Of a DNA stretch of 64,000 nt, positions 13,618 to 22,740 are shown piece by piece; within the stretch, counting starts at the first letter, position 1, and each line of letters opens with the position of its first letter. A program made the position numbers and the translations under genes. The DNA is from Sphingomonadales bacterium (GTDB taxonomy: Bacteria > Pseudomonadota > Alphaproteobacteria > Sphingomonadales > Sphingomonadaceae). The notes beneath the pieces were generated by a model. It was not told where the DNA came from. It worked only from the letters and a program-made list of their open reading frames with translations, and did no database searches. The stretch covers positions 25,155 through 89,154 of the forward strand of contig JANPCO010000131.1 in the NCBI GenBank assembly GCA_031430995.1, in the 5' to 3' direction.

Positions 13618-15300
13618 TTATCCCATTGAAGCCGCTTTCGGTAGTGCATCGTGCACATCCGCGCTGAAACCGGGCTGCGGGGCCATTTGCTGCAACCGAT
13701 AAGCAGGCAGCAAATTGCGTTCAGCCAGCAAAACCCGCGTGGCGGCAATGGATGTTGGCTTGCCGTAAAACCAGCCCTGGCCCTTATGACAGCCCAGTTG
13801 GCGTAGCCGTTCTTGAATGCCTGCGTCTTCAATTCCCTCCGCCGTCACTGGCATGTTGAGATTTTCGCCCAGCCGCGCGATGGCGTTCACAATCGCGTTG
13901 CTTTCAATATTATCATTGAGGGACAATATGAAGCTCTTGTCGATTTTGATCCGATCAAAGGGCAAAGCACGCAAGTGGGCAAGTGAGCTATAGCCTGTGC
14001 CAAAATCGTCAAGCGCAAGGCGAATGCCTTGGTTTTTGAGGCTGCCGACAATGGATTGCGCCAGCGCCAGATTATCGAACAAAGCCGATTCGGTAATCTC
14101 AATTTCCAGCCGTGCCGCAGGAAACGCCGTTTCCGTGAGCAGTTTCACAATCTTTTGCGGCAACCACGGGTCGCGCAACTGGGTGGGAGAAATGTTGACC
14201 GAAATCGAAAGCGACGGATCCCAGTCGCGGGCTTCGAGCAGTGCTTGTTCGATGATCGACATGGAAAGGTCGCCAATCATGCCTGTCTCTTCGGCGATAG
14301 GTATGAAAATGTCCGGCAATATGAGGCCTTTTTTGGGGTGATTCCACCGCGCCAACACTTCAAAACCCTGCAATTTGCCCGTGTTGAGATCAATCTGCTG
14401 TTCAAAATAGGGAACAAATTCACCCTTTGGAATGCCAAAGCGCATTTGGCCTTCCAATTCGTTGCGGGCGTGAAGTTCCAGCTCCATTGCTGTATCGAAC
14501 CAGACGAAGCGGTTACGCCCTTGGCCCTTAGCCACATACATGGCGATATCGGCGCGGCGCATGACAGCATCGACAGAACTGCAATCATGGTCTGACGTCG
14601 CGATCCCCGCCGATGCGCTAATGTGGGCATAGATGCCGTCCGCATCAAAGGGCTGCGCCAAGCGGCTGACCAGCAATTCGGTGACGCGCGACACCGTTTC
14701 AGGATTGGCGGAATCGTAAGGAAAGGCGCAGGCAAATTCATCACCGCCCAGCCGCGCGGTCAAGGCACGCGGCGGCACTAGTTTTGCAATTTCAGCAGCG
14801 ACACTGCGCAGAAGCGCATCACCGATGGCATGGCCGTGCAAATCATTCACTGTTTTGAAATGATCCAGATCAATCATGATCACGGCCAGTTCTTTGCCGC
14901 GGGCCTGAGTTTGGGTGAGCAAATCTGCGCCAGTATCGGCAATCGAGCGGCGGTTGTGAAATCCCGTCAGCGGGTCTCGCAGGGCCAGGCCGTGAGCGCG
15001 TTCTTCAGCAACAGTGCGCTCCTCAACCTCTCCTGCCAGTTCGGTGTAACGCCGCCACCCGAACAGGATGATGGCCACATTGAGAATAAGGGCCACGTAA
15101 AGCGCTTGGTCGGTATCGCTCCCCAAGCCTGAAAGAGTTGCAATCACGGACCGGGCAACAGTCGTGGCATTGCCGACGAATAGAATGATGGCCGCAACCA
15201 ATATCCCTGCCGTCAAAATATCCTTGGTCTTTTCAGTGACGTTGGACTTTGACTGCGCGACTAAACGTTCAATTGTGAACCCCACTGCGGGCACCCCCAT
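13618..15300 (-). CDS. Membrane-anchored GGDEF-EAL c-di-GMP turnover protein
   Basis: It has N-terminal TM segments, a GGDEF domain (RLGGDEFACAF) and an EAL domain (EVLARW ... DDFGTGYSSL). Confidence 0.85.
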   Translation of the reverse strand: MGVPAVGFTIERLVAQSKSNVTEKTKDILTAGILVAAIILFVGNATTVARSVIATLSGLGSDTDQALYVALILNVAIILFGWRRYTELAGEVEERTVAEERAHGLALRDPLTGFHNRRSIADTGADLLTQTQARGKELAVIMIDLDHFKTVNDLHGHAIGDALLRSVAAEIAKLVPPRALTARLGGDEFACAFPYDSANPETVSRVTELLVSRLAQPFDADGIYAHISASAGIATSDHDCSSVDAVMRRADIAMYVAKGQGRNRFVWFDTAMELELHARNELEGQMRFGIPKGEFVPYFEQQIDLNTGKLQGFEVLARWNHPKKGLILPDIFIPIAEETGMIGDLSMSIIEQALLEARDWDPSLSISVNISPTQLRDPWLPQKIVKLLTETAFPAARLEIEITESALFDNLALAQSIVGSLKNQGIRLALDDFGTGYSSLAHLRALPFDRIKIDKSFILSLNDNIESNAIVNAIARLGENLNMPVTAEGIEDAGIQERLRQLGCHKGQGWFYGKPTSIAATRVLLAERNLLPAYRLQQMAPQPGFSADVHDALPKAASMG

Positions 15301-15498
15301 TTCAGATCTACGTAAACAGCCGTGAATATATGCCGGAAATGTATGAAAAGGACGTTAAGTATCGTCCGCGCGTCATGATTGACGATCACGTGATGTTGGC
15401 CTAATGCATTCGCCACAGAATCAATGCGCCGGCTGACGAGTATCGTCCGCTGGCGATTTTTGTTATTTGGAGCCGTTCTTTGGGTTTGGAGCCAGCGC

Positions 15499-16941
15499 AT
15501 GTTTGAAAGTTTGAGCGAAAGGCTGGGCGGCGTTTTTGACCGTTTGCGCGGTCGTGGTGCGCTCAATGAAGCAGACGTGCGCGAGGCCATGCGCGAAGTA
15601 CGGATTGCGCTGCTCGAGGCTGATGTCGCCTTGCCAGTTGTGCGGTCCTTTGTTGACAGTGTTACGACCAAGGCTGTCGGACAGTCGGTTCTGAAATCAA
15701 TCACGCCGGGTCAGCAAGTCGTCAAAATCGTCAACGATGCGCTTGCCGAAATGCTCGGCTCCGAAGCCGCAGAGCTTAATCTGGCCGTCACGCCGCCTGC
15801 GATCATCATGATGGTGGGCTTGCAAGGGTCAGGCAAAACCACCAGCACAGCCAAGATTGCTAAGCGGCTGACGGACAAGGATCGCAAGAAAGTTCTGATG
15901 GCGTCGCTCGACGTTAACCGCCCGGCTGCTCAAGAGCAGCTGGCGATATTGGGCGAACAAACTGGCGTCGCGACGTTGCCGATTGTTACCGGCCAGCAGC
16001 CCGTTGAAATTGCCAAGCGTGCGATCCAGGCTGCAAAATTGCAGGGCTTCGATGTCCTCCTGCTGGATACCGCAGGCCGCCTGCACGTTGACCAGGCCCT
16101 GATGGATGAAATGCGCGCTGTTTCTGATGTGGCTCAGCCTGCAGAAACATTGCTCGTCGTCGATGCGTTGACAGGCCAGGACGCCGTTAACGTTGCCAAG
16201 AATTTCTCTGACCAAGTGCCGCTCACTGGGATCATATTGACGCGGATGGACGGCGACGCGCGCGGCGGGGCAGCGCTTTCGATGCGCGCCGTCACGGGCA
16301 AGCCAATCAAATTTGTCGGCACGGGTGAAAAGCTCGACGGCCTTGATGTGTTTCACCCAGACCGTGTCGCCAGCCGCATCCTTGGGATGGGCGACGTCGT
16401 CAGCCTGGTTGAGCGCGCAGCGGAAACCATCGAAGCCGGTGAAGCAGAAGCAATGGCGGCCAAAATGGCCAAGGGTCAGTTCGACATGAACGACCTCAAA
16501 AGCCAGCTTGGCCAGATGAAGCGCATGGGCGGCATGGGCGCGTTGATGGGGATGCTGCCGGGCATGAAGAAAGCCCAAACGGCCATGGCGCAATCCGGTA
16601 TGAACGACAAAGTTCTGGTCCGTATGGAAGCTGTGATCGATTCGATGACGCCCAAAGAACGCGCCAAGCCTGAACTACTGGCGGCCAAACGTAAAATTCG
16701 CATCGCCAATGGGTCTGGCACCACGGTGCAAGAGGTCAACAAGCTGATCAAGATGCATCAGGAAATGGCAGGCGCTATGAAAAAGATCAAAAAGATGGGC
16801 GGCGTGAAAGGCCTTGGCGCGATGATGGGTCGTGCTGGAGGTTTGGGTGGCGGACTGGGTGGTTTGCTTGGCGGCGGCGCAGGAGCGGGTCCGATGGGCC
16901 AGGCACTCCCGCCGGGGTTTGATCAGTTGATGAAGAAGTAG
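15499..16941 (+). CDS. ffh: Signal recognition particle protein Ffh
   Basis: The protein starts MFESLSERLGGVFDRL, carries GLQGSGKTT and DTAGR, and has a Met-rich M domain. The start was moved to the ATG at 15499. Confidence 0.95.
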   Translation: MFESLSERLGGVFDRLRGRGALNEADVREAMREVRIALLEADVALPVVRSFVDSVTTKAVGQSVLKSITPGQQVVKIVNDALAEMLGSEAAELNLAVTPPAIIMMVGLQGSGKTTSTAKIAKRLTDKDRKKVLMASLDVNRPAAQEQLAILGEQTGVATLPIVTGQQPVEIAKRAIQAAKLQGFDVLLLDTAGRLHVDQALMDEMRAVSDVAQPAETLLVVDALTGQDAVNVAKNFSDQVPLTGIILTRMDGDARGGAALSMRAVTGKPIKFVGTGEKLDGLDVFHPDRVASRILGMGDVVSLVERAAETIEAGEAEAMAAKMAKGQFDMNDLKSQLGQMKRMGGMGALMGMLPGMKKAQTAMAQSGMNDKVLVRMEAVIDSMTPKERAKPELLAAKRKIRIANGSGTTVQEVNKLIKMHQEMAGAMKKIKKMGGVKGLGAMMGRAGGLGGGLGGLLGGGAGAGPMGQALPPGFDQLMKK

Positions 16942-16944
16942 TCC

Positions 16945-17023
16945 GTCGCCCTGAACTTGTTTCAGGGTCCATGCCTCACGTTCAAACAGCGTGGCATGGA
17001 TGCTGAAACAAGTTCAGCATGAC
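16945..17023. repeat. Intergenic palindromic repeat, family A, copy 2 (ffh-rpsP spacer)
   Basis: The sequence is gtcgccctgaacttgtttcagggtccatgcc ... ggcatggatgctgaaacaagttcagcatgac. It has the same termini as 2304-2413 but a shorter centre. Confidence 0.85.
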
Positions 17024-17059
17024 GGTTTTGGTTTTTGGATTAAAAAGAAGGAAGAAAAA

Positions 17060-17638
17060 ATGGCAGTTTCAATTCGTTTGTCGCGCGGCGGTTCTAAAAA
17101 GCGGCCTTATTACCGGATCGTGGTGGCGGATGCCCGATCTCCCCGTGATGGCCAGTTCATCGAAAAGGTGGGCACCTATAACCCCATGCTCGCCAAGGAT
17201 GATGCCAACCGCGTGACCCTGAACAGCGAACGCCTGACCCATTGGTTGAGCGTTGGCGCACAGCCAACCGACCGCGTCGCGCGCTTCCTTGATGTGGCTG
17301 GCCTGCGCGAACGCCCCGCCCGCAACAACCCAACCAAGGGCAAGCCCGGCGAAAAGGCCATCGAGCGCATTGAAGAGTTGGAAAAGAAAGCGGCTGCCAA
17401 GGTTGAAGCCGAAGCCGCCGCCAAAATTGCTGCTGCGGAAGCCGCTGAAGCTGCCAAGGCCGCTGCGGAAGAAGCCGCCGCTGCACCTGCGCCAGAGCCA
17501 GAGCCAGAGCCAGAAGTGGTTGCCGAGGAAGTTGCCGCTGAAGAAACAACTCCTCCAGAAGGTGAAGCACCTGCAGAAGCTGCAGAAGAAGAAGCTCCCG
17601 CTGCTGAAGCTGCGACTGAGGAAAAGGCGGAGGGTTGA
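17060..17638 (+). CDS. rpsP: 30S ribosomal protein S16 with a long Ala/Glu/Pro-rich C-terminal extension
   Basis: The protein starts [31 protein letters not shown] from the ATG at 17060, preceded by gaaggaag. The longer track ORF starts inside the family A repeat. Confidence 0.9.
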
Positions 17639-18153
17639 GTCCTTCGGCCCAGCCCCCTCTCCCAACCCTCTCTCCTAAAGGGGAGAGGGTTATCACCCTG
17701 GCCGCCATCATCGGTGCGCACGGGCTGACGGGCGAAGTGCGCTTGAAACTGTTTACAGGCGATGTCAGCGGCTTGAAAGCGCATAAGGCCTTCAACGGTG
17801 GCACGCTGACCCTCAAAAGCCTGCGCCCCGGCAACGCCATCATCGCGCGCTTTGCCGAAATCACAGATCGCAACGGGGCAGACGCCGCGCGGGGCACTGC
17901 CCTGACCGTGCCCCGCACCGCCCTGCCCGCACTGGCGGACGGCGAATATTATCACGCTGACCTAATCGGCCTCCCTTGCGTTTCCACCGATGGCAATGAC
18001 ATTGGTCTATGCGTCGCGGTTGAAAATTTTGGCGCAGGCGATGTGCTGGAGATCGAACGGCCCGACAAGGCCCGTTTCATGGTGCCAATGACAGTGGACG
18101 CTGTGCCCGAGTGGGGCGCGCGCATCATCATTGACGCTCAGTTTGTGGGTTAG
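17635..18153 (+). CDS. rimM: 16S rRNA processing protein RimM
   Basis: It has the [14 protein letters not shown] motif and a PRC barrel region. The only in-frame start upstream is the TTG at 17635, which overlaps the rpsP stop. The exact start is uncertain. Confidence 0.8.
17664..17691 (+). repeat. Hairpin-forming element aaccctctctcc-taaa-ggggagagggtt inside the 5' end of rimM
   Basis: The two 12-nt arms match at 11/12 positions around a 4-nt loop. A second ccctctccc copy lies at 17655-17663. Confidence 0.7.
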
Positions 18154-18183
18154 TATATACGTCCGGTAGACACGGAGGGCGCT

Positions 18184-18438
18184 ATGGGCCGAGAGTTTGA
18201 TGCAAAAATTTTTCAATCGGGTAACTCAGTTGCTTTGCGTTTACCCAAGGCGTTAGGCCTTAAAGCTGGTGATATGATGCGGGTCCGTCAAGAACACGGC
18301 AATCTGATCGCAGCGCCAATGGCCTCTCGGAATGAGTATATCGATCTTGAAGGCATCTATGGGTCTGTTCCGGGCATAAGCCGTCCGCCATGTGACGAGA
18401 ACCCACGCGACTGGTATGTCGGCCGTCAAAATGGCTGA
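18184..18438 (+). CDS. vapB: AbrB/SpoVT-type VapB antitoxin
   Basis: It has the SGNSVALRLPKALGL swapped-hairpin motif. It is 84 aa and overlaps the downstream PIN gene by 8 nt. Confidence 0.8.
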   Translation: MGREFDAKIFQSGNSVALRLPKALGLKAGDMMRVRQEHGNLIAAPMASRNEYIDLEGIYGSVPGISRPPCDENPRDWYVGRQNG

Positions 18439-18808
18439 GCCTCTTTTTCTAATTGATACCAACATTTGTATTTATCTGCTGGATGGTCGGGGCGAAAAGG
18501 TTCGGCACCGGATGGAATCGTGCAAGCGGGAACAGATTGTAACGTCAGCAATTGTCCGCGCAGAGGTTATGCTGGGCGCCAAGGCGCAAGATCAAGTTGA
18601 CCGGGCGAAGGCCCTGTTTGCCCAGATCGAAGTGTTGCCGTTCGATTCAAGCGCAGCCGATGCCTACGCCGCGATCCCGTTTTATCGTGGCAACCTTGAT
18701 CGCTTTATCGGTGCCCACGCAATTTCACTTGGTTTGACGCTTGTTACGAATGACGAGAGCGATTTTGAGGACATGCCCGGGTTAAAGGTTGAGAACTGGA
18801 CGGTTTGA
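18431..18808 (+). CDS. vapC: PIN-domain VapC toxin
   Basis: The protein starts MAEPLFLIDTNICIYLL, and acidic PIN residues are present (D in IDTN, E in AEV, D in DRF, TND). The start was moved to the ATG at 18431. Confidence 0.85.
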   Translation: MAEPLFLIDTNICIYLLDGRGEKVRHRMESCKREQIVTSAIVRAEVMLGAKAQDQVDRAKALFAQIEVLPFDSSAADAYAAIPFYRGNLDRFIGAHAISLGLTLVTNDESDFEDMPGLKVENWTV

Positions 18809-19161
18809 TGAAAAATGTTCAGATCATCGACGGTGCTGAAAATTGCACATTTTCCGTGTTTGAATTTACAGACCAGCAGTTCTCGATAATATTTTCAACT
18901 AAAGGTCAAGATTTAGCTTTTGCCGAAGAGCTGGAAACAAGACTTTCTGCTGCTCAACTGGTGATAGCATTTGAAGGTGTTTGGAACCGCCCGGCGGACA
19001 AACAACAAATTCAAGGACTTCATGGAACCATATTCTATGGCTTTTCCGAGAAAAGACATGTCTTTCCCGCGACAAGGCGAGAGTGTGACTGGGACGACCA
19101 AGCGGTTAATGAAGCGCAACGGCAACTAAATTTCATTCGACGTCAGCAGTCTTCGGAATGA
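18808..19161 (+). CDS. Hypothetical protein (117 aa), no family recognised
   Basis: This clean ORF has an ATG sharing one base with the vapC stop (TGATG) and a stop overlapping the trmD ATG (ATGA). G+C is visibly low (hand count 43/120 in the first 120 nt). Confidence 0.6.
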
Positions 19162-20015
19162 CCTTCCAAGCCCAAATCATCACCCTCTACCCCGAGATGT
19201 TCCCCGGCCCGCTCGGAGTCTCGCTGGCAGGCAGAGCGTTGGCAGAGGGGATATGGTCTTGCACGCCCATCCAACTGCGCGACTTTGCGAGCGACAAGCA
19301 CCGGACGGTGGATGATACGCCTGCGGGGGGCGGGGCGGGGATGGTGTTGAAGGCGGATGTGCTGGCGCGGGCTGTGGAGTTTGCGGGTGAAGAGATGGCC
19401 ATGCTGTGCTCCGGCGAAGGCCGGAGCCGACGGGGGCTTGATAACAAGGCATCGCCGGATCCTGCGTTTGGGGCTGGGCTCCGGCCTTCGCCGGAGCACG
19501 GCGAGCGCGCGACCCCGGCTGTCCCCATACTCGCCCTCACTCCCCGAGGCACGCCGATCACGCAGGCCCGCATACGGCAAATCGCCCAAGGCCCCGGTGT
19601 CACTCTGATCTGCGGGCGCTTTGAAGGCTTCGACGAACGACTGTTTGATGCTTACCCGCAAATCGAACAAGTCAGCGTTGGCGACATCGTCCTCTCTGGC
19701 GGGGAGCCTGCTGCGCTGATGCTGCTCGATGCTTGCATTCGGCTGCTTCCCGGCGTAATGGGCGCGTCTTGCAGTGGTGTTGAAGAGTCGTTCGAAAACG
19801 GCCTGCTTGAATATCCGCACTACACCCGGCCCGCTGATTGGGAAGGGCGGCTGATCCCGCAAGTGTTGCGATCGGGGGATCATGCGAAGATCGAAGCGTG
19901 GCGCAAGTCGCAGTCCGAGATCGATACACGGTTACGCAGACCGGACCTTTGGGAGCGCCATATTGGAACTCGGGTTCAGCCTGCCTATGGCGCGCGACGA
20001 AAGAATAAGGACTAA
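19158..20015 (+). CDS. trmD: tRNA (m1G37) methyltransferase TrmD carrying an internal insertion of about 40 aa
   Basis: It has [33 protein letters not shown] and SGGEPAA motifs. Residues around 80-121 have no counterpart in E. coli TrmD as I recall it. Confidence 0.9.
19407..19498. repeat. Perfect 22-bp inverted repeat pair (nested palindrome) inside the trmD coding sequence
   Basis: The arm 19407-19428 (tgctccggcgaaggccggagcc) and the arm 19477-19498 (ggctccggccttcgccggagca) are exact reverse complements. Each arm is itself a small hairpin (ctccggc-gaag-gccggag). Confidence 0.9.
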
Positions 20016-20022
20016 CTGGGGC

Positions 20023-20439
20023 ATGAACCTCATCCAAACAATCGAGGCGGAACAAATCGCCAAAATGACAGCCAGACTGACCGATGCAGGCCGGACCATT
20101 CCAGATTTTCGCCCCGGTGATACGCTGAAAGTCGGCGTGAAGGTGATCGAAGGTGAGCGCACCCGCGTTCAGAATTACGAAGGCGTGTGCATTGCACGGT
20201 CTAACAAGGGCATAGGCTCCAACTTCACTGTGCGGAAAATTTCGTTCGGCGAAGGTGTTGAGCGCGTTTTTCCGCTTTATTCGCCCAACATCGACAGCAT
20301 TGAAGTGATCCGCAAGGGCGCTGTGCGTCGTGCCAAACTTTACTATCTACGCGGTCGTCGCGGCAAATCGGCGCGGATCGCCGAACGCCGGGACACGCGA
20401 ATTACAGACGCCGCGAAGAAAACAGGTTCTGACGCCTGA
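20023..20439 (+). CDS. rplS: 50S ribosomal protein L19
   Basis: The protein reads [12 protein letters not shown]...[31 protein letters not shown]. The start was moved to the ATG at 20023. Confidence 0.95.
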
Positions 20440-20466
20440 TCCCGTTCGTTTGTTAAGCGAGTTGCC

Positions 20467-20506
20467 AAAAGGGCCGGGATCCAAGAGAGGGTTCCGGCCC
20501 TTTTTC
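20467..20506 (+). terminator. Rho-independent terminator after rplS
   Basis: The stem agggccgg / ccggccct (20470-20477 / 20494-20501) is followed by ttttt. Confidence 0.7.
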
Positions 20507-20523
20507 GTTGGTGGAGTGAGGAT

Positions 20524-22740
20524 GTGGTGAGATGGATAGTATTGGCCGCTGCCCTGATTGCGGGGGGACAACCAGCGATGGCTGAGAACAACCCTCTGAC
20601 GCTGGAACGTGTTTTCGCTTCGCCTTCGATCAATGGACCTGCGCCGCGCGCAGTGAAGCTGTCACCCGATGGCCGCTTGCTCACGTCGCTGCGACCGCGC
20701 GCTAATGACCGGGAGCGTTTTGACCTGTGGGCGCTCGACACCGTGACGGGCGAGTGGCGTATGCTCGTCGATAGCCTGAAAATCGGCACGGGTGCCGAAC
20801 TGTCGGAAGCGGAAAAGATGCAGCGCGAACGCGCCCGGATTGGCGGCAGCAAAGGCATTGTTGCCTATGACTGGTCGCCTGACAGCCAGTCAATTCTGGT
20901 GCCGCTGGATGGCGACATTTTCCTTGCTGACTTGTCGGGCAAAGTCACACGGCTCACCGCCACACAAGCAGGCGAACTCGACGCGACAATGAGCCCCAAA
21001 GGCGGATTCGTCTCCTTCATTCGCGATCAGAACCTGTTTGTGCGCAGCGTTGCTAAGGGCAGTGCGACGGGCAAAGAACGCGCGCTGACAACAGAGGGCA
21101 AAGACCTGGTCAGCTGGGGCGTCGCGGAATTTGTGGCGCAAGAGGAAATGGACCGAACGCGTGGGGCTTGGTGGTCCCCTGATGATAGCCGGATCGCCGC
21201 CGCTCGCGTCGATGAAGAACCAGTGGCCGTCGTGAGCCGCGCAGCGATTGGTGCGGACGGCACCAAGGTTTTCGATCAACGTTACCCGCTGGCAGGCACA
21301 GCCAATGCGATCGTTTCGCTCCACATCATTCAGTCCGACGGGTCAGGCGAAGTGCGCGTCGATCTTGGTGAAAATCCCGATATCTATCTGGCCCGCGTCG
21401 ATTGGGTTCCGGACGGCAAGAGCCTGATCGCACAGCGCCAATCGCGCGATCAAAAGACACTGGATGTCTTGACTGTTAATGCTTTCACCGGCGCGTCGAA
21501 AATTCTATTCACAGAAACCTCGAAAACCTGGATCAATTTGCATGACAATTTGCGCTTCCTAAAAGATGGCAGCTTGCTGTGGACGTCAGAGAAAGACGGT
21601 TACAACCATATCTACCGGATCAAGGGCGGCAAGTGGCAGCAACTCACCAAAGGCGCGTGGATGGTGCGCGCCGTCACGGGTGTCGATGAAGCAGCGGGCA
21701 AGCTTTATTTCACCGCCAACCGCGAAACGCCGATCGAACAGCATTTTTACAGCATGCCACTCAGTGGCGGCGAGCCCACTCTGCAAACTCCGCGCGGCGG
21801 CTGGCACAGCGTCACGATGAACAAGGCCGCGAACCGCGCCATCATCACCCACTCAACCCCCAATCAGCCAGACCAAGTCTATCTGGCAGGGGCCGATGGT
21901 CAGCGGACGGCGTGGATTGAAGAAAATGCCCTTGGTGCCGCGCATCCCTATGCGCCTTATCTGGCCAGCCATACGGCACCGCAGTTCGGGACGATCAAAG
22001 CGGCCGATGGCACAGTGCTGCACACCAAGCTGCTGCTGCCCAAGATGGAAGCAGGCAAACGCTATCCGGTCTTTGTGCAAGTCTACGGCGGGCCGGGGGC
22101 CGGGCGTCAAGTGACCGCGACATGGGGGGGCGCTTTGCATCAGTTGTTGGTTGATCAGGGGTGGATCGTCTTTTCGGTCGATGGGCGCGGCACACCAGAC
22201 CGCGGCAAGGCATTTGAAGACCCGATCTATCAAGCAATGGGCAGCGTCGAAGTGGCTGACCAACTGGCGGGTGTGGCTTGGCTAAAAGGACAATCCTATG
22301 TCGACCCTGCCAAGCTCGCCGTCTATGGCTGGTCCTACGGCGGCTATATGACGCTCAAGCTTCTTCAGGCCGCGCCCGGCACTTTTGCCGCTGGGGTGTC
22401 CGGCGCGCCAGTCACTAAGTGGGGGCTGTATGATACCCATTATACGGAGCGTTACATGGGCGATCCGCGCATGGTGCCGGATGCCTATGCCAAAGCGGAT
22501 GTCATTCCGAATGCCGCCAAAATCGCCGATCCGCTGCTGCTCATTCACGGGATGGCGGATGATAATGTGGTATTTGATCATTCGACAGCGCTGATGGGCG
22601 CGCTTCAAGGGGCAGCAGTGCCGTTTGAAACGATGGTTTACCCCGGGCAAACCCACCGAGTTGGCGGGCCCAAGGTGAGTGTCCATCTCTGGACGTCGAT
22701 CCTCAATTTTTTGAACCGCGAAGTTAAGAATAAGGACTAG
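20524..22740 (+). CDS. Secreted dipeptidyl peptidase IV (S9B family)
   Basis: It has a signal peptide, a DPP-IV-type beta-propeller N-terminus and a catalytic GWSYGGY motif with downstream Asp/His regions. Confidence 0.85.
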   Translation: MVRWIVLAAALIAGGQPAMAENNPLTLERVFASPSINGPAPRAVKLSPDGRLLTSLRPRANDRERFDLWALDTVTGEWRMLVDSLKIGTGAELSEAEKMQRERARIGGSKGIVAYDWSPDSQSILVPLDGDIFLADLSGKVTRLTATQAGELDATMSPKGGFVSFIRDQNLFVRSVAKGSATGKERALTTEGKDLVSWGVAEFVAQEEMDRTRGAWWSPDDSRIAAARVDEEPVAVVSRAAIGADGTKVFDQRYPLAGTANAIVSLHIIQSDGSGEVRVDLGENPDIYLARVDWVPDGKSLIAQRQSRDQKTLDVLTVNAFTGASKILFTETSKTWINLHDNLRFLKDGSLLWTSEKDGYNHIYRIKGGKWQQLTKGAWMVRAVTGVDEAAGKLYFTANRETPIEQHFYSMPLSGGEPTLQTPRGGWHSVTMNKAANRAIITHSTPNQPDQVYLAGADGQRTAWIEENALGAAHPYAPYLASHTAPQFGTIKAADGTVLHTKLLLPKMEAGKRYPVFVQVYGGPGAGRQVTATWGGALHQLLVDQGWIVFSVDGRGTPDRGKAFEDPIYQAMGSVEVADQLAGVAWLKGQSYVDPAKLAVYGWSYGGYMTLKLLQAAPGTFAAGVSGAPVTKWGLYDTHYTERYMGDPRMVPDAYAKADVIPNAAKIADPLLLIHGMADDNVVFDHSTALMGALQGAAVPFETMVYPGQTHRVGGPKVSVHLWTSILNFLNREVKNKD

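Follow-up and report, generated by a model that had tools for sequence, protein, structure and literature searches.

A VapBC toxin-antitoxin operon and a DUF8220 gene in the variable rimM-trmD junction of Sphingomonadales

How does a toxin-antitoxin (TA) pair come to stand in the textbook-conserved junction between rimM and trmD, and what follows for trmD and rplS, the two essential translation genes behind it? The question is raised by a 64,000-nucleotide (nt) stretch from a Sphingomonadales bacterium (contig JANPCO010000131.1), called the window throughout, whose gene order was read from the open reading frame (ORF) listing, the raw sequence and Pfam. Its genes keep the order and strand of the canonical rpsP-rimM-trmD-rplS operon of E. 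coli and most bacteria, but the rimM-trmD junction is interrupted by vapB, vapC and a third gene, ORF3 (protein lengths in amino acids, aa):

17060-17638, plus strand: rpsP, from the ORF listing and Pfam
17635-18153, plus strand: rimM, Pfam RimM and PRC_RimM, 3' end compared with relatives
18184-18438, plus strand: vapB, an AbrB/MazE-like protein of 84 aa
18431-18808, plus strand: vapC, a PIN-domain protein of 125 aa
18808-19161, plus strand: ORF3, a DUF8220 (PF26665) protein of 117 aa
19158-20015, plus strand: trmD, Pfam tRNA_m1G_MT and alignment
20023-20439, plus strand: rplS (L19), last gene of the unit, Pfam Ribosomal_L19, E 4e-47

The segment is best read, with good confidence, as two separable modules in a variable rimM-trmD slot typical of sphingomonads: an autoregulated VapBC operon and a DUF8220 gene, which would read into trmD-rplS. 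The gene identities, conserved motifs, synteny, purifying selection and gain and loss of modules that carry this reading are observed in the sequences compared. The first module would be a complete type II VapBC operon with its own promoter, tandem operator and strong Shine-Dalgarno (SD) sequence; the second would be the DUF8220 gene, whose ATG overlaps the vapC stop and whose stop overlaps the trmD ATG.

The rimM-trmD junction as a variable slot

In the window, rimM and trmD lie 1,004 nt apart with three genes inside, and the rpsP operon is not contiguous, its order and orientation being kept. The vapB and vapC genes overlap by 8 nt (ATGGCTGA), the vapC stop and the ORF3 start share TGATG, the ORF3 stop and the trmD ATG share ATGA, and trmD is followed after 7 nt by rplS. 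A preliminary description of this DNA had recognised a VapB/VapC module and a third ORF, inserted relative to the canonical rimM-trmD adjacency; its coordinates and three junction overlaps are all reproduced from the ORF listing and the raw sequence. The atypical composition that it noted is equally apparent. Its hand counts of G+C (43/120 at the ORF3 start, 36/60 at the trmD start) are exact, and G+C at third codon positions (GC3) is 0.47 in vapB, 0.56 in vapC and 0.38 in ORF3, all below rimM (0.70) and trmD (0.69), against a window mean of 0.635 ± 0.042 and a minimum of 0.543 over 87 plausible long ORFs. Nowhere in the 64 kb does GC fall lower than in the vapB-vapC-DUF8220 cassette. The same cassette is seen again in four independent Logan runs (SRR36203219, SRR36203185, SRR20217180 and SRR20217191; loci L001-L004), with VapB 100%, VapC 98-100% and DUF8220 100% identical; because of this recurrence, the organism and its arrangement can be said to have been sampled repeatedly.

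Among relatives, the junction is far from fixed. An unbiased TrmD-profile scan of metagenome contigs yields 80 loci with 57-69% TrmD identity to the window, 67 of them with enough upstream sequence to be informative. Upstream of trmD, 23 of the 67 carry vapBC, 36 carry other genes and only 8 have rimM abutting trmD, so that the adjacency taken as normal in the preliminary description does not hold in this group. Within the 23, vapC abuts or overlaps the trmD start in 11 (14/35 when all vapBC loci are counted). Five further contexts of VapC homologues were looked up (L167, L169, L170, L171 and L172), and all five lie upstream of trmD; L167 belongs to a Sphingomonas sp. and L169 to the complete genome of Parasphingorhabdus halotolerans (CP051217.1). 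Most of the sampled sphingomonad relatives thus share the interrupted junction with the window, unlike the canonical operon, and by these comparisons the textbook-conserved rimM-trmD junction is a variable slot in this group.

The occupants of the slot are vapBC, DUF8220, a membrane ORF of ~105 aa, and opposite-strand Pyr_redox_2 or PPIase genes. In L167, L171 and L172, vapB is cut off from rimM by opposite-strand genes or has no rimM upstream at all, and vapB-vapC-trmD-rplS forms a unit of its own; the putative vapBC promoter is then the only visible promoter for trmD-rplS. A literature search found no paper linking vapBC or VapC with trmD or rimM synteny. The apparently conserved vapBC address upstream of trmD-rplS and the slot-like turnover there were not found described, nor was the probable dependence of trmD-rplS on a TA promoter in some lineages.

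The function of chromosomal TA systems has long been disputed, with selfish elements, stress regulators and phage defence as the candidates. Here a VapBC family holds the same position in roughly one of every three related loci that were sampled, directly upstream of two essential translation genes and often overlapping them. The nearest parallel in E. coli is relA-mazEF, a chromosomal type II TA system co-transcribed with a housekeeping gene. There mazEF lies downstream of relA, and no essential gene is known to depend on it, whereas in the window the TA pair precedes the essential genes trmD and rplS and probably has translational coupling to them. If a TA promoter does drive trmD-rplS, TA autoregulation would be wired into tRNA modification and ribosome synthesis, a question that can be tested in cultured sphingomonads such as P. 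halotolerans.

Two other occupants recur. The hydrophobic ORF of ~105 aa has no Pfam match, stands in the slot of DUF8220 with its stop overlapping the trmD ATG, and is found with or without vapBC; L005, which bears DUF8220, has one of the carriers, L100, as its nearest relative by housekeeping genes (0.93). The opposite-strand Pyr_redox_2 gene encodes a thioredoxin-reductase-like flavoprotein of ~320 aa; it is frequent between rimM and trmD or vapB, and breaks the classical operon. In L009 and L174 a ~505-aa beta-lactamase-family gene stands ahead of vapB instead.

L088, 3684-4004: ~105-aa ORF
L100, 3678-4004: ~105-aa ORF
L104, 3690-4004: ~105-aa ORF
L109, 1098-1430: ~105-aa ORF
L112, 2473-2838: ~105-aa ORF
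L149, L154, L156, L158 and L159: ~105-aa ORF, further loci
L145, L149, L151, L154, L156-L162, L167 and L171: Pyr_redox_2 gene

Candidate promoter and operator, and the proteins, of the vapBC module

Between the end of rimM and vapB, the window carries a compact set of candidate control elements:

18131-18136, plus strand: -35-like TTGACG, 17 nt upstream of TATATA, read from the sequence
18153-18160, no strand assigned: operator box 1, the perfect palindrome GTATATAC, containing the -10-like TATATA (18154-18159)
18166-18173, no strand assigned: operator box 2, GTAGACAC, two mismatches to GTATATAC, 5 nt after box 1
18174-18179, plus strand: SD sequence GGAGGG for vapB, at the place of the GGAGG that directly follows box 2 in the 28-locus consensus

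The final codons of rimM (..IIIDAQFVG*) contain the -35-like hexamer, and the rimM TAG stop overlaps box 1. TTGACG stems from the native RimM C-terminus (..IDA..) and is found also in loci without vapBC. The sequence GTATATAC occurs once in the 64 kb, where 0.04 occurrences are expected. When the sequences 5' of vapB are aligned across 32 loci, an exact box 1, palindromic as an operator would be, is present in 28, and the box statistics are drawn from these. The spacing from box 1 to box 2 is exactly 5 nt in all 28, the box 2 consensus is again GTATATAC, and the overall consensus reads TTGAC, ~17 nt, GTATATAC, 5 nt, GTATATAC, GGAGG, ~6 nt, ATG. A -35 with at least four of the five TTGAC bases lies 16-18 nt away in 16/28 loci, in some of them where the position is non-coding for rimM.

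The arrangement has a characterised counterpart in Caulobacter crescentus. The vapBC1 operator oligonucleotide of that species is GGAAC-GTATATAC-GCATA-TTGACGGAG; a sigma-73 promoter has been mapped there by 5' rapid amplification of cDNA ends, with a -10 that half-site 1 overlaps, and a VapB4C4 complex has been crystallised on this DNA (Bendtsen et al. 2017, PMC5389673). C. crescentus VapBC1 (CC_0032/CC_0031; PDB 5k8j, 5l6l, 5l6m) likewise pairs an AbrB-type VapB with a PIN VapC. As in the window, its half-site 1, identical to the window's box 1, lies over the -10, and a second half-site follows after 5 nt and then GGAG. Its half-site 2 is no palindrome, whereas in most sphingomonad loci both boxes are perfect, and a sequence search with the window's VapB does not detect C. 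crescentus VapB1. Nor does vapBC1 lie next to trmD in Caulobacter: it is CC_0031/32, while trmD is CCNA_00198 and rplS is CCNA_00197 (PMC8144410).

By this homology, the VapB-VapC complex would bind the two boxes and repress a promoter formed by the TTGACG in the last rimM codons and the TATATA within box 1, and the vapBC module appears to bring, or to use, its own autoregulated promoter. The preliminary description saw no obvious promoter gap. That view fails because the mapped, VapBC-bound C. crescentus operator shares GTATATAC, overlapping the -10, with the conserved element that precedes vapB. In L170 (3735-3765) a displaced relic of the rimM 3' end (..VSVDAGIAV*, with TTGACG) lies upstream of the operator, and the rimM gene proper stops short of it and has an unrelated C-terminus. 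The rimM tail and, along with it, the vapBC promoter seem to have been separated from the rest of the gene by an insertion.

The VapC protein is readily assigned. It matches PF01850 at E 3.3e-17 (63.6 bits, cutoff 23.6), as a PIN toxin should, and its acidic quartet is intact, with D9, E45, D92 and a C-terminal acidic residue aligning with Shigella VapC. Its C-terminal signature is DF.D.PGLKVENWT, and the C-terminus DFADVPGLKVENWT is common to the VapCs of 36 loci. Its closest matches, by structure and by profile, are the tRNA(fMet)-specific VapBC systems of Shigella (MvpAT), Salmonella and Leptospira (PDB 3tnd, 6ifc, 9h6a), whose VapCs share the PIN acidic quartet and a C-terminal GL..E(N/D)W motif with that of the window: E is 1e-13 against the Shigella and Salmonella structures, and 7e-10 against C. 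crescentus VapC1 (5k8j). Against the tRNA(fMet) endonuclease models, E reaches 1e-25 for NF047863, the scores of 90.5 bits for NF047863 (cutoff 140) and 57.2 bits for NF010285 (cutoff 143) lying below the equivalog level. VapC is thus a predicted PIN RNase closest to the VapCs that cleave initiator tRNA, its RNA target being a lead and not a result. Those tRNA(fMet) modules are plasmid-borne or free-standing, not joined to essential translation genes, unlike that of the window.

VapB is more divergent. Its N-terminus is of the AbrB/SpoVT type and reads SGNSVALRLPK (motif SGNSxAxRxPK), through which it matches NTHi VapB1 (6nkl_C) at E 0.0019. The match to PF04014 has E 1.8e-4 and 21.8 bits, under the cutoff of 24.7, and the scores against the NCBIfam VapB models are also below their cutoffs (NF040493, 20.7 bits against 60). 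Taken with its operator, similar to that of Caulobacter VapBC1, the VapBC module itself is of a known kind.

Both proteins are under strong purifying selection. Compared with L170, the ratio of nonsynonymous to synonymous divergence (dN/dS) is 0.037 for vapB, 0.072 for vapC and 0.078 for ffh, at synonymous divergences (dS) of 2.0, 1.1 and 1.4. Such selection lends indirect support only to a toxin-antitoxin activity, yet it bears on a further possibility, namely that vapBC, no longer a TA system, has been domesticated and is kept solely to serve trmD-rplS as promoter and translational-coupling scaffold. The relatives in which its promoter is the only visible one for trmD-rplS, and the degenerate box 2 of the window, would suit such a role. 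A pure scaffold, though, needs no conserved protein, while here dN/dS is 0.04-0.07, and 36 loci conserve both the catalytic residues of the PIN domain and the C-terminal signature of VapC; eight loci, moreover, do without the module entirely. Domestication to a scaffold is therefore very unlikely.

Age and exchange of the modules

The closest relative, L170, helps to date the TA pair. Its identities to the window are 86% for Ffh, 88% for VapB, 86% for VapC and 86% for the TrmD N-terminus. Because VapBC identity is like that of Ffh and synonymous divergence is saturated as in ffh (dS at least 1), vapBC is placed at this address before the window and L170 split. DUF8220 is absent from L170, where only 4 nt lie between the vapC stop and the trmD ATG. 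The converse is seen in L007, a Sphingorhabdus metagenome-assembled genome, with rimM-DUF8220-trmD and no vapBC. At L007 4977-5003, the 27 nt that end at the DUF8220 ATG agree with the 3' end of vapC at 21/27 positions and form an 8-codon mini-ORF, MFENWTIR*, a remnant of the conserved VapC C-terminus. Since this vapC relic remains before the DUF8220 ATG, vapBC was deleted in L007. The stop of the mini-ORF overlaps the DUF8220 ATG, an overlap that keeps a possible coupling arrangement.

The VapC alleles do not simply follow their hosts. VapC identity does not track TrmD plus RplS identity (Mantel r 0.07, p 0.19; 24 loci), and simple co-speciation of VapC by vertical inheritance is rejected on this test. 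Sister lineages with housekeeping identities of 0.92-0.93 have VapC identities of only 0.45-0.55, DUF8220 follows four different VapC clades, and between the window and L176 DUF8220 is 70% identical, VapC 48% and VapB 36%. The neighbour-joining (NJ) trees were not bootstrapped, and their topology is not relied on. These patterns suggest that VapBC alleles and the third-slot gene have been exchanged or replaced at one address; recombination via the conserved operator and via the ends of vapC (3') and trmD (5') is the likely route.

These observations bear directly on the preliminary description, which saw a recently acquired, foreign vapB-vapC-ORF3 unit in a canonical operon, locked in place by the dependence of trmD and rplS. 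Low GC (DUF8220 GC3 0.38 against about 0.64) in the lowest-GC stretch of the window, tight junctions, and a VapC similarity incongruent with housekeeping genes, which implies that horizontal exchange does occur here, would all fit such an event. Yet vapB and vapC are as diverged from L170 as ffh is, so that the module is older than that split, and the arrangement recurs across many lineages (vapBC in 23/67 loci). Nor is the cassette one unit: vapBC and DUF8220 part company in L007, in L170 and at many other loci, and DUF8220 follows the four VapC clades. Nor is it locked, the modules being deleted, swapped or absent in close relatives and lost cleanly in L007, L170 and the 8 loci where rimM abuts trmD. 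Nor does the low GC of DUF8220 mark a recent arrival: the gene lies 5-15 GC points below its host locus in nearly all of the 80 host genome loci surveyed below, which makes low GC a family trait. A recent, locked-in cassette is highly improbable and largely refuted by the comparative data. The comparison of rimM-trmD spacing proposed in that description, with widespread synteny of native-like composition as its refutation, comes out divided: widespread and old synteny is found, native-like composition is not.

The DUF8220 gene

The third ORF had been described as having no recognisable family. The identical protein, as well as all 45 homologues, carries a precomputed PF26665.1 (DUF8220) match that is not marked as weak or faint, and ORF3 shares the invariant N-terminus and other invariant alignment residues of the family. 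A profile from the study's own alignment finds 594 clusters (50% identity) among 1.84 billion representatives, which marks DUF8220 as a small family. Relatives are encoded in 151 species genomes, mostly Alphaproteobacteria, from which 80 loci were kept for a survey of context; the stand-alone members span Alphaproteobacteria and some Acidobacteriota. The AF2 model has a pLDDT of 90.6. Foldseek with this model gives nothing below E 0.001 in PDB or BFVD, the best BFVD matches being uncharacterised phage proteins at E 0.02-0.03 and TM about 0.3. A profile search against PDB sequences and searches of PADLOC and NCBIfam give no match, and a literature search found no paper that mentions DUF8220. 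Several members (P0172, P0174, P0175, P0177 and others) have 200-250 aa with two matched stretches, as tandem two-domain versions.

Most members stand alone in unrelated contexts, in contrast to that of the window in its vapC-trmD slot. Only 4/80 genome loci lie in the rpsP operon, and look-ups of encoding contigs add three more (L005, L174 and L176); the rimM-trmD slot holds DUF8220 in seven lineages, namely the window, L005, L007, L008, L009, L174 and L176. In L005, L008, L009, L174 and L176 the order vapB-vapC-DUF8220-trmD-rplS recurs with the same overlapping junctions. At the other 76/80 loci, tblastn with the window proteins (1e-4) detects no VapB or VapC neighbour, and the stand-alone gene follows unrelated housekeeping genes such as ispH-, lpxC- or aroC-like ones. 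In about 20 loci the DUF8220 ORF, with its low GC3, escaped the crude ORF caller, which leaves the neighbour survey incomplete. In the alignment, ORF3 falls into a locus-specific 'NC' subgroup, found only in the vapC-trmD slot and distinct from the stand-alone 'NA' subgroup. With this slot, the family gains its first recurrent genomic context.

Could DUF8220 then be a functional third TA component, a chaperone, second antitoxin or VapBC regulator, as in toxin-antitoxin-chaperone systems? Its start sits at the vapC stop (TGATG or ATGA) in six lineages, after four VapC clades; the subgroup tied to this locus is distinct; and against L176 it is better conserved than its TA neighbours. A third gene of a tripartite TA system should, however, co-occur consistently with the pair, and DUF8220 does not. 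The 76 loci just described have unrelated housekeeping neighbours instead of a detectable VapB or VapC, L007 keeps the gene after deletion of vapBC, and most vapBC-trmD loci, including L170, lack it. Structure, profile and PADLOC searches moreover do not connect DUF8220 with SecB-like proteins or with any other known TA accessory protein. A role as third component is accordingly unlikely, and the gene is better treated as the second of two separable modules.

Probable reading into trmD-rplS, and repeats nearby

In the two-module reading, the cassette is open towards trmD. A terminator scan, which gave 4 terminator-like sites in all against 4.9 expected by chance, found no convincing terminator between vapB and trmD, the sole such site within the cassette lying in the vapB/vapC overlap; the preliminary description had likewise noted no terminator. 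Because none follows the cassette, trmD and rplS would probably be transcribed from the upstream rpsP promoter and also from that of vapBC. Translation would probably proceed by termination-reinitiation along vapB, vapC, DUF8220 and trmD; vapC, DUF8220 and trmD all lack good SD sequences. Of the read-through and coupling proposed earlier, the missing visible separation from trmD-rplS stands, while read-through and coupling themselves are plausible readings of the sequence.

Several points weigh against the two-module reading as a working circuit. Promoter activity, VapBC repression, co-transcription, translational coupling and the RNA target of VapC are all predictions. A good -35 at canonical spacing is found in only 16 of the 28 aligned loci, and L167 has none. 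No box 2 among the 28 is more degenerate than that of the window, and repression may be weak here. Promoter-like sites in the AT-rich DUF8220 start (18789-18816 and 18865-18893) could drive trmD independently. VapB falls below the curated cutoff of every antitoxin model in Pfam and NCBIfam, and short proteins underlie the NJ tree and the Mantel test. As evidence of coupling, the ATGA at trmD counts for less than it seems to, because the conserved Met-Thr start of TrmD creates a TGA in the +1 frame whatever lies upstream; as proof of coupling, the overlap was downgraded on this ground. In the trmD initiation region, folding is not stronger than in shuffled sequence (z 0.66). In L005 (4749-4790) a CTG stands where the trmD of other lineages has an ATG or GTG start overlapping the DUF8220 stop, and the 13 N-terminal TrmD codons (TFTAQILTLYPEM) are still conserved; this TrmD either uses a rare CTG start, perhaps aided by reinitiation, or starts at Met14.

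A bolder extension of the two-module reading is possible but doubtful. The autoregulated vapBC promoter may be a physiological, and sometimes the sole, promoter of trmD-rplS in many Sphingomonadales, so that the state of the TA system would directly set the supply of TrmD, the m1G37 tRNA methyltransferase, and of L19, and the junction may be an allele-swapping recombination slot. Under stress, VapB would be degraded and the promoter de-repressed while VapC cuts a tRNA. The items swapped would be VapBC alleles, DUF8220 and the ~105-aa membrane protein, the homology arms being the operator, which is conserved, together with the 3' end of vapC and the 5' end of trmD.

Palindromic repeats are scattered around the cassette. 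At 19403-19502, trmD contains an in-frame GC-rich palindromic insert with 26-nt arms, 96% complementary and 48 nt apart, which brings TrmD to a length of 285 aa, compared with 233-247 aa in L005, L007 and L008. TrmD of L009 (284 aa) has a different insert in the same loop, and that of L169 also has 285 aa. The window holds no second copy of the insert arm. The insert resembles a MITE/REP-type insertion, one that an essential enzyme tolerates in a surface loop. An Rfam E-value scan of 15000-21000 gives only sub-threshold chance matches, on palindromic repeats.

The ffh-rpsP spacer (16943-17025) carries a palindromic repeat with 33-nt arms (..TGAAACAAGTTCAGCATGACG..) just upstream of rpsP. A related copy lies at 2394-2414, similar sequence is found upstream of vapB in L121 and L127, and the spacer repeat yields spurious 'KQVQHDG'-type ORF translations. 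It is a dispersed repeat family and not part of the cassette. Finally, the 5' part of rimM (17664-17691) contains a hairpin with 13-nt arms (AACCCTCTCTCCT / AGGGGAGAGGGTT) in the N-terminal coding region, which may be another small repeat insertion that extends the RimM N-terminus.

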